From IMG/VR virus record IMGVR_UViG_2684623059_000004: a stretch of DNA of 37,308 bases, one strand, 5' to 3'. The position numbers were made by a program, and so were the translations under genes. Every line of letters starts with the position of its first letter. Position 1 is the stretch's first letter. Origin of the DNA: a virus. Taxonomy: Duplodnaviria; Heunggongvirae; Uroviricota; Caudoviricetes. Shown one piece after another: positions 25,981-27,910 of this stretch. The notes under the pieces were generated by a model. It ran no database searches and had not been told where the DNA came from. It saw nothing but the letters and a program-made list of their open reading frames with translations.

Positions 25981-27741
25981 TTAGCTATTTAACATTAATT
26001 TATAATGTTCCTTTATATCTTTTATAGCATCAAAAATACAACAAAATGCCTTAAAATCTATTTTCCGCTTTTTATCTCTAACAACCCTCATGGAAAAAAT
26101 ATGCTTCCCATATTCCGTTTTTGAGTCTCCATCATTATTTTTGTTGAATTTCTTACCATCAATCTTGATATCTAAAATATCTTTAGGGAAAAGATCCTCC
26201 ATTGAAGTTTGTTCGCCGGAAGGACTCAATGGTGTGAGAACTATATATAAATTATAGAAAACATGAATATATTTCATCTTTCTCATTTCAGTTACATCGT
26301 CTGGGCAGCTTTTAACTTTATTGCGCAGAAAATTAAGTAAATCACTTGGACCTGTATCATTATCAAGAACCATAATCACTGGCTGTTTTGGAACAGAACC
26401 ATAATAAGAAGCATAATTATTTTTATAACGTTCTACAAATTTTTTCAGATCTGCAGTTCCCCCAGAAAGATCTAAAAAATATTTGGTCTTTTCATTAGAT
26501 TTAAATATATTAAGATTTATTTCTTTCTTTTTACTATCTGTTTTTTCTCTAAACAACTCAGGATATGATGTCTCCAAAGAATGCAAAGCAGCCTTCAAAT
26601 ATATCCGATCAGTCTTCCCTTCTGTAATTATCGTAGGACAGGTGTTGCCATGAAAAAATTTATAGTAAATAAATTTACTATATGCTTTTTCTCGCGCATT
26701 CAACTTTAATTTAAAACCATACAAAGTCGCATTAGTCAATACATATCTATCAGGTTGCTTGTTCAGTTTTTTCTTTATATTGTTAAACTTATCAACTTGA
26801 TCAATAAAACCAAACATCCCCTCAAGTTTATCCAGACCTCCTGAAACTAAAACACCATTTTCATCTGGCACTTTATATTCACCTGTACGATACAAAGCAT
26901 GTGCCAACGCCCGAGTTTTTTTATAATAACATCTATCAATATTAACGATTCTGTTAACTGTAAGTCCCGTTACTTCTTGCCTTGATGTCTTATACGTAAG
27001 CCTAGTCTTTGAATCATTTATTTCGAATCCAGAGTTTTCTATTTCTTTTACCAAAACTTTTCCCAAAACAACCCCTTCAGGTTGCACAGTAGCCATTTCT
27101 AACGGAAATGTATTTTTATTTGTAGAAATTGTTATATCATCAGCATATCTGCTATAAGTACATCCATATTTTTTAGCCAGTTTAGCTAATCTCATATCCA
27201 TAATATTGCAAATTAGATTTGAGATAACAGGAGAACATGGACTTCCCTGGGGGAGGGTTCCATTATAGCATGCAGCTTTTGCAAGTGTCGTTGCCACCAC
27301 AGGATTTAATAAAAAATCCTGATTGGAAAGAAAATATCCTCTAACTCGTCCGAAATTAAAGCTTTCAAAAAAATCCTTAAGATCTATATTTAATATTATT
27401 TGTTTGCCTCTATGCTTATAAGCATTTAGGATTATTGATTTTCCCCTCTCAAAACCAAAGGAATAGTTGTTACTAATTTTCCTTATAGCAAAGATCTCAT
27501 CTCTACAATCAGAAAGTAAGTCACATATTCTTCGTTGGATGTCCTTCAACCGGTCTGTAGGTGCAGAAATAGTCCTTACCCCTTTTCCTTTCTTCGGTAT
27601 TGTAAATTGAGTGTATTGATTATCCGAGCCGATTCTATATAGAACGTTAGTTAAAAATACCAACTTAACATCTAAAATTTTAGCCAAGTCTTCACGTGAA
27701 GTAGCAGCCCTAAGTGCGTCAAGTTTAGATGTTTTTGTCAT
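25981..27741 (-). CDS. retron-type reverse transcriptase fused to a C-terminal Toprim domain
   Basis: RT motifs LPQGSPCSP and RYADDITIS; Toprim motifs IITEGKTD and VLDNDTG; 586 aa from Met44; longest ORF (to 27870) runs through the upstream RNA region; AT-rich. Confidence 0.85.
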
Positions 27742-27779
27742 TTCTTCTTCATCCCAGAGGAAAAAAGGCCAAGGAGAAA

Positions 27780-27910
27780 CGCATGCAGGCACTCCTTCGC
27801 ACAGCACACCTGCCGTATAGCTCTGAATCAAGGATTTTAGGGAGGCGATTCCTCCTGCCATTAAGGCCACTGGTTGCGATTCACAACCAACAAATCTGCC
27901 TACATGCGTG
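27780..27910 (-). ncRNA. candidate retron msr/msd non-coding RNA
   Basis: inverted repeats cgcatgcaggca (27780-27791) and tgcctacatgcg (27896-27907) flank about 105 nt containing hairpins GGAGGcgattCCTCC and GGTTGcgattcaCAACC, directly 5' of the RT on the same strand; exact ends not determined. Confidence 0.5.

Follow-up and report, generated by a model that had tools for sequence, protein, structure and literature searches.

Locus and prophage context

The window analysed in the present study is a 37,308-nucleotide stretch of viral DNA (Caudoviricetes; IMG/VR record IMGVR_UViG_2684623059_000004), and on its minus strand a mechanical list of open reading frames places a 629-codon frame with a GTG start at 27870 and a TAA stop at 25981–25983. 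Within this frame, and ending at the same stop codon, lies the coding sequence of a 586-residue RT–TOPRIM fusion protein (25981..27741), and immediately upstream of this gene on the same strand are the elements of a retron RNA. The cassette that contains both (25940–27960) has a GC content of 34%, compared with 50% for the window, and is flanked by the portal gene, whose stop codon is at 25939, and by the cos region, in which matches to the phage collection (Fels-2/186-like) resume at 27961. A terminase, a gpA-type replication protein, 186-type CI and CII proteins, an integrase and a D12 Dam methylase are also encoded in the window. A review reports that the retrons Ec67 and Ec86 replace approximately 180 bp between cos and the packaging-gene terminator of a 186-related prophage, and both the dip in GC content and the resumption of phage matches at cos agree with the insertion site given in that review for Ec67. 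Across complete E. coli genomes the cassette was found, over at least 80% of its length, in 15 of 5,426.

Identity of the RT–TOPRIM protein

Residues 44–629 of the long frame align with residues 1–586 of the 'Retron Ec67 protein' (PDB 9i2f, 9i2g, 9s1f and 9lm3), and the two sequences are identical at 584/586 positions, the only substitutions relative to PDB 9i2f/9lm3 being a valine for an isoleucine and a tyrosine for a histidine. Profile searches gave the same picture, with a score of 705.5 bits against a cut-off of 450 for NCBIfam NF038237 (retron_Ec67_fus; retron Ec67 family RNA-directed DNA polymerase/endonuclease), a match that begins at residue 50 of the frame, an E-value of 1.5e-217 for the PADLOC model RT-Toprim_I-C, which covers residues 44–626, and an E-value of 5e-31 for Pfam RVT_1. 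The catalytic YADD motif is found at residues 242–245 of the frame, corresponding to 199–202 of Ec67, and this motif, the RVT_1 domain and the matches to both retron models place the enzyme in the retron clade of RTs. The C-terminal TOPRIM domain carries motif IV as EGKTD (Ec67 residues 374–378) and motif V as DND (460–462), so that the protein has the RT with C-terminal TOPRIM and the EGxxD and DxD signatures of a type I-C1 retron. The published residue D462 is residue 505 of the long frame, an offset of exactly 43 and the same as that of YADD.

The msr–msd RNA

The RNA upstream of the gene was mapped by placing the published numbering with r52 at 27859 and dT1 at 27793. The structural papers describe a branching rG15 linked to dT1, a single strand rA16–rU19, a stem-loop rG20–rU42, a further single strand rG43–rU51 and an RNA–DNA duplex of rG52–rA62 with dT57–dC67, with termination at G52:dC67. 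All 15 of the published base identities were matched, 11/11 in the RNA together with dT1, dA56, dT57 and dC67 of the DNA. With this numbering the msr RNA occupies 27849..27910 on the minus strand (r1 at 27910 and r62 at 27849), and r52–r62 remains in duplex with the 3′ end of the msDNA. The inverted repeat a1, the 5′ arm of the closing stem, lies within it at 27897..27909 (r2–r14; minus strand), and its partner a2, the 3′ arm, is found at 27779..27791 on the same strand, 37 nt upstream of the RT ATG; the two 13-nt arms are 92% complementary. At the 3′ end of a1 is the branching guanosine rG15, which provides the priming 2′-OH (27896, minus strand; context GGCAGAUUU), assigned from the published numbering and its base identity. 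It stands in the CAGA context that the review cites for Ec67 and is invariant in 14 loci. The msr stem-loop rG20–rU42 (27869..27891, minus strand), which is published, is also predicted in the single-sequence fold, and its 3′ strand holds the GTG at 27870.

The msDNA-Ec67 sequence is read on the plus strand at 27793..27859, from dT1 to dC67, and the minus strand there is the msd template RNA. The original prediction had put forward this same stretch as msDNA, and it proves exact: the segment is 67 nt long, begins with T, ends with C and carries the published landmarks of Ec67. The inverted repeat and hairpin described at the same time are likewise present with all of their coordinates correct, the hairpin being a GGAGG–loop–CCUCC element of the msd template RNA (27841..27855, minus strand; r56–r70) with the loop cgatt. 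In mature msDNA the CCTCC arm (d59–d63) is held in the RNA–DNA duplex instead of in a hairpin. The organization found, an msr–msd region closed by a1/a2 on the same strand as the RT gene and directly upstream of it, with a branching G at the end of a1, is that of a retron.

The ncRNA (27779–27910) has a 100% identical counterpart in E. coli S10 and in six further genomes, and the wider interval 27741–27918 does not differ between the window and any of the seven near-identical RefSeq genomes, S10 among them. E. coli S10 was the source of Eco2 for one of the cryo-EM structures, and the msDNA has been seen by cryo-EM. Judged from the identity of its ncRNA to that of S10, the copy in the window would also give rise to branched, RNA-linked msDNA.

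Searches of Rfam returned no retron ncRNA family over 27000–28600, with chance hits only even at E ≤ 10, and a gathering-score search of the whole window with Rfam 15 found only RybB, elsewhere in the window. As there is no matching family, the assignment of the RNA rests on the mapping from the literature and on the covariation analysis made here.

RNA folding and covariation

A 138-nt RNA from this region folds at −59.3 kcal/mol, compared with −40.5 ± 4.0 kcal/mol for shuffled sequences (z = −4.66), and none of 200 shuffles did as well. For comparison we used diverged type I-C loci (L002, L005–L012 and L018–L021 in our numbering), from E. coli GF4-3, Enterobacter, Raoultella, Arsenophonus, Morganella and Vibrio, the proteins of which are named 'retron Ec67 family' in RefSeq. 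RNAalifold, applied to ten loci, recovered the a1/a2 stem, a short helix flanking the branching G, the msr hairpin and the GGAGG/CCUCC hairpin. In this ten-sequence alignment 13 pairs were changed on both sides, compared with 3.6 ± 1.5 in column shuffles, of which 0/500 reached 13, and 96.7% of the cells were paired, compared with 29–54% when the partners were slid. The a1/a2 helix was 99.2% paired in the ten sequences and, in an alignment of 14, showed compensatory changes at 12 of its 13 pairs. Eight pairs of the msr stem-loop were 100% paired, three of them with compensatory changes, and the GGAGG/CCUCC helix was 84% paired in the ten-sequence alignment, with compensatory changes at three of five pairs. 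One msr pair is U–G in the window and U–A in the relatives; as this exchange is valid solely on the minus strand, it fixes the strand of the RNA. These data show that the nucleotides beneath the 5′ extension of the long frame behave as structured RNA.

The 67-nt msDNA taken alone folded no better than its shuffles (z = 0.05), which fits the observation in one structural paper that msDNA nucleotides 29–50 form a three-way junction in trans and not a hairpin. A classical msDNA hairpin is unsupported by this value, and we claim no hairpin beyond the GGAGG/CCTCC element.

A probable promoter

The promoter of the msr–msd–RT transcript probably lies at 27917..27945 on the minus strand, where conservation points to a TGGAAA element (27945–27940) separated by a 17-nt spacer from the extended −10 element TGaTATTTT (27925–27917). 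It ends 6 nt before r1, and the pattern CTGGAA...TGnTAnnTT is conserved in eight of ten upstream sequences. A consensus promoter scan did not report the conserved TGGAAA-17-TGnTATTTT; a minus-strand promoter that was reported by scan at 27861–27834 lies inside the msd and is probably a chance match. From the proposed promoter a single minus-strand transcript would start near 27910–27913 and would fold through the a1/a2 stem, 27897–27909 pairing with 27779–27791.

Ribosome-binding sites and a possible uORF

The original prediction stated that the long frame has no Shine–Dalgarno sequence at 27870, and this is borne out by the anti-Shine–Dalgarno pairing energy there, −2.6 kcal/mol, which is close to the mean of −2.4 kcal/mol at random positions of the window. 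At ATG 27861, three codons downstream of the GTG, the value is −1.5 kcal/mol, and at ATG 27741 it is −4.0 kcal/mol, itself a weak signal. The strongest match in the region is instead an AAGGAG within the msd (27794–27799; −8.3 kcal/mol), which ranks in the top 2% of random positions and, read on the minus strand (27799–27794), precedes an AUG in a2 (27784) by 7 nt. This AUG opens a uORF of 11 codons that stops at 27749–27751, 7 nt before the RT ATG.

Ribosomes loaded at the AAGGAG might thus translate the uORF and re-initiate at the weak RT start, with folding of a1/a2 hiding the ribosome-binding site, so that translation and priming would be mutually exclusive. If this were true, the very stem that is required for priming would switch off RT translation, RT supply would depend on the share of transcripts that had yet to enter msDNA synthesis, and a relation to the association of ribosomal protein S1 with msd RNA could be envisaged. 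Beyond the pairing energy, the points that speak for it are the presence of an AUG at the a2 position in 13 of 14 loci, a uORF end that, in the ten loci measured, falls between −17 and +24 nt relative to the RT ATG, and the co-purification of S1 with msd RNA in a published study. However, a1/a2 pairing, together with conservation around the start of reverse transcription, already accounts for the CAUG and GAAGGAG sequences, and any ORF opened in a2 must end nearby, as only approximately 40 nt separate a2 from the RT ATG. Moreover, the loci differ in the length of the uORF (1–19 codons), in its peptide and in its frame with respect to the RT: L018, L019 and L021 have the AUG in the RT frame, L020 has a stop directly after it, and L008 has AUA in its place. 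We therefore regard such re-initiation as unlikely; it would in any case add to the explanation of the locus as Ec67 and not replace it. The in-frame a2 AUG of three loci does have one practical effect, which is that gene callers start those RT proteins there.

The translation start of the RT

We return to the identification of the locus as Ec67 and to the question of where its RT begins. The 43 additional codons of the mechanical frame (27742..27870, minus strand) lie over the 3′ part of the msr (codons 1–4), the msd (codons 4–26), a2 (codons 27–31) and the 37-nt spacer (codons 31–43). The original prediction that these codons overlap the msd was thus correct as to the overlap, but too narrow, the msr 3′ part, a2 and the spacer being covered as well.

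Alignment of homologues, the check that had been proposed for the RT N-terminus, showed that the extension is not conserved. Among the best 120 cluster representatives (46–99% identity), residue 1 was aligned with M44 of the long frame in 71/120 and lay no more than two residues from M44 in 93/120, and the lengths of the homologues in these clusters peak at 586. The suspicion that the 629-residue start was probably wrong is thereby upheld, homologues, profiles and PDB chains all placing the start at or near residue 44. Three longer homologues (P0014, P0045 and P0024) were considered as examples of a conserved extension and rejected, their starts being over-called at the a2 AUG. A fourth, P0016 (621 residues), was rejected because it is over-called from a TTG upstream of a2, 31 codons before the homologous ATG. 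Its 31-residue extension contains CYAKEC and that of the window CEGV; the P0016 locus, L010, has the conserved GCGAAGGAGTG at this site, so any resemblance between the extensions would lie in shared RNA sequence and not in a peptide.

The reading frame itself is closed in relatives. In all nine of the diverged loci first examined a stop codon was met upstream of the homologous ATG, after 3, 3, 3, 8, 9, 15, 29, 35 and 44 codons, and in the closest diverged locus, L005 (86% amino acid identity), there is an in-frame stop 10 codons upstream. Substitutions between the window and L005 at the first, second and third codon positions number 58/32/172 in the RT, which is the signature of coding sequence, and 7/3/7 in the extension, a non-coding pattern without third-position bias. 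The window and all seven near-identical genomes have no stop in this frame over the 62 codons that precede the true ATG. When the same 186 nt were shuffled by mononucleotides, 8.7% of the shuffles left at least 43 upstream codons open, and an opening this common in shuffles needs no explanation for its presence in the Ec67 lineage. The 62 codons would on this account have remained open by chance in this lineage only, their nucleotides being constrained as RNA and not as protein.

On these comparisons the 43 upstream codons are read as non-coding sequence that overlies the ncRNA and the spacer, and the ATG at 27741 as the true start. A genuine extended isoform translated through the ncRNA, of 629 residues from GTG 27870 or of 626 residues from ATG 27861, might be argued from the 62-codon open frame in the window and seven near-identical genomes, from the choice of upstream starts by PGAP and from the position of both codons within the proposed transcript, but we consider it scarcely credible, given that neither start has a Shine–Dalgarno sequence, that GTG 27870 is placed in the 3′ strand of the msr stem-loop, that equally long frames arise in approximately 9% of shuffles while the frame is closed in 9/9 diverged loci first examined (one at 86% identity), that homologues begin at M44, that the extension is substituted in a non-coding manner, and that the protein which structural studies purified, solved, assembled with msDNA and reported as functional is the 586-residue form (PDB 9i2f/9i2g/9s1f/9lm3). 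On sequence grounds, rare initiation at either of the two upstream codons is conceivable.

Taken together, we put the probability at approximately 97% that 25981..27741 on the minus strand and the RNA upstream of it, which forms the 5′ part of the element, are retron Ec67 (Retron-Eco2, type I-C1), a cargo element that a 186/P2-like prophage holds between its portal gene and cos, with the RT–TOPRIM protein translated from ATG 27741 and the 629-residue ORF an artefact. The object is thus already known, being a named and structurally solved retron, and the finding is a correction of annotation and not a discovery. Ec67/Eco2 was among the earliest retrons to be described in E. coli, and cryo-EM structures and a defined defence mechanism are now available for it.

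Annotation in public records

It had been anticipated that annotation of the long ORF would hide the ncRNA, and in RefSeq this has in fact happened. All seven of the near-identical genomes sampled, S10 included, carry a PGAP coding sequence of 626 or 646 residues across the ncRNA, and no RNA feature is annotated at the retron in these seven. The 626-residue form, recorded as WP_226124585.1, starts at the ATG equivalent to 27861, and the 646-residue form, WP_000470468.1, at an ATG created by an SNP at 27919. The only copy that we noted with an annotated length of 586 residues is that of E. coli GF4-3 (73% identical), in which a stop codon closes the frame. The wrong N-terminus will pass into pipelines for counting defence systems or for mining retrons as editors, and these will miss the ncRNA. 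The value of the present analysis is therefore practical, in that it identifies a systematic start-site error in RefSeq and a missing Rfam model, and it adds nothing new to the biology; the 14-locus covariation alignment could seed an ncRNA model for type I-C retrons.

Mechanism of the retron

The identity with Ec67, the coordinates of the ncRNA, the non-conservation of the extension and the covariation were derived here, together with a promoter and transcript start that we infer; msDNA synthesis, the trimer, the DenB trigger and tRNA cleavage are taken from the literature. In the published mechanism, the RT primes on the 2′-OH of rG15, copies the msd and stops opposite rG52 (PMC12916289, PMC12405507). 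In the window, priming at 27896 would give the 67-nt msDNA (27793..27859, plus strand), joined to the msr by a 2′–5′ linkage. RT–TOPRIM–msDNA assembles as a trimer of three such units, and the msDNA encloses the TOPRIM nuclease as a cage; once the msDNA has been nicked or degraded by the phage nuclease DenB, TOPRIM is released, cuts tRNAs in their acceptor stems and brings translation to a halt (PMC12916289, PMC12405507).

Comparison with known retrons

Ec67 is known from E. coli S10 and from the original clinical strain. The element in the window is the same one, with 584/586 identical residues in a 586-residue protein, the ncRNA of S10, a branching G in CAGA and a 67-nt msDNA, and it occupies the same site, from the portal gene to cos of a 186-like prophage. 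The window differs by the two amino acid substitutions given above and, ahead of a1 in the promoter/cos region, by one to four SNPs. On the right-hand side of cos, moreover, its prophage arm carries an ORF for a 243-residue lipoprotein-like protein, which is absent beside the retron in the 15 E. coli genomes that have it.

The diverged type I-C retrons share with the window the RT–TOPRIM architecture, the a1/a2 stem, GCAGAUUUGU around the branching G, the msr hairpin and the sequence GCG(A/U)(A/G)(A/G)GAGU at the 3′ end of the msd, and several of them occupy the same P2-like site by portal/terminase or gpA genes. They differ in their protein sequences (48–86% identity) and in the interiors of their msd regions, which are variable. 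As they have no long open frame upstream of the RT, gene callers mostly give their proteins approximately 586 residues. A scan of genome contigs with the RT protein added a single distant locus from Alkalibacterium, which at 27% identity is uninformative.

Ec86 (Retron-Eco1, type II-A) is, according to the review, found at the same 186-like prophage site as Ec67. It has in common with the element in the window an msr–msd region flanked by a1/a2 upstream of the RT and a related RT domain (E = 1.6e-34), but its RT is a 320-residue protein without a TOPRIM fusion, its effector is separate, its ncRNA is a different one and its msDNA is 86 nt long.

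Annotation of the Ec67 RT start and its leader

The true ATG of the 586-amino-acid retron Ec67 RT-TOPRIM protein lies at 27741 on the minus strand, and the original prediction was that annotating the longer frame upstream of it would hide the msr-msd ncRNA. In the RefSeq/PGAP annotation, an over-long Ec67 RT CDS covering sequence within 27742-27921 (minus strand) was found in all seven of the near-identical E. coli genomes sampled (loci L001, L003 and L013-L017), one of which is strain S10, the origin of one solved structure, and in none of the seven was an ncRNA feature annotated at the Ec67 locus. 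The call is of either 626 amino acids (WP_226124585.1 and WP_235637144.1) or 646 amino acids (WP_000470468.1, WP_231235622.1 and WP_194882339.1), the latter arising because a SNP at 27919 (A to C) makes an ATG.

A further start-like signal is found closer to the RT, at 27749-27799 (minus strand), where an SD-like AAGGAG within the msd lies 7 nt upstream of an AUG (27784) inside the a2 arm of the closing stem. The predicted anti-SD pairing at this AAGGAG, -8.3 kcal/mol, is the strongest in the region, and the AUG opens an 11-codon uORF that ends 7 nt ahead of the RT ATG. This AUG is found in 13 of 14 related loci, among which the peptide, frame and length of the uORF all vary, and gene callers start the RT from it in three diverged type I-C loci (L018, L019 and L021). 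Just upstream of the a1 arm, at 27917-27945 (minus strand), there is a conserved promoter-like element consisting of TGGAAA, a 17-nt spacer and the extended -10 TGaTATTTT; the pattern CTGGAA...TGnTAnnTT is common to eight of ten upstream sequences, and the element was missed by a consensus promoter scan.

The cos region and prophage mosaicism

The block at 27961-28130 (both strands) is 97-99% identical to its counterparts in Fels-2, RE2010 and Klebsiella P2-like phages, and contains GGCGTGGCGGGGATACGAG (minus strand, approx. 27975-27997), a sequence like the cos site of 186/P2. At 28045-28070 it has a perfect hairpin, rich in GC, that resembles a bidirectional terminator, and in some RefSeq genomes a 64-amino-acid 'hypothetical protein' (WP_071529030.1) is annotated over this stretch. 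The block from approx. 27970 to 29300 is present at 99% identity in about 50 E. coli genomes, e.g. ATCC 8739, and includes a 243-amino-acid ORF (28172-28903, minus strand) with a lipoprotein-type signal, MKINNVALPISLAVILTGC, after an internal Met and with no matches in Pfam, NCBIfam or PADLOC. The 15 retron-carrying genomes lack the window's sequence past 28121, so its prophage is a mosaic.

Other prophage genes and boundaries

Adjoining the gpA replication gene is a Dam-like D12-class N6-adenine DNA methyltransferase gene (31959-32876, minus strand; Pfam E = 2e-76); a Dam methylase was reportedly mentioned when the Ec67 element was first described. A 311-amino-acid FRG-domain protein (16245-17180, plus strand), whose gene runs against the direction of the phage late genes around it, may be a further cargo (moron) gene. 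The gene for a 190-amino-acid serine resolvase/invertase (10146-10718, minus strand; Resolvase and HTH_7 domains) sits in the region upstream of minus-strand ORFs of 519 and 200 amino acids (11574-13735), and this region may be an invertible host-range switch. At the left end, host chromosome is represented by an Asp-Al_Ex/TrkA_C permease gene (936-2621, plus strand) followed by the sRNA RybB (2701-2779, plus strand; Rfam, 106.5 bits), and the left edge of the prophage is probably somewhere between the end of RybB and the first phage-like ORF, which begins at 3166. The integrase gene (36100-37308) occupies the far right end.

Fold of the msDNA

When the sequence of the 67-nt msDNA (27793-27859, plus strand) was folded alone, it gave -6.2 kcal/mol (z = 0.05), no better than shuffled sequences, which fits a 2026 report that Ec67 msDNA makes an intermolecular three-way junction and not a classical single hairpin.
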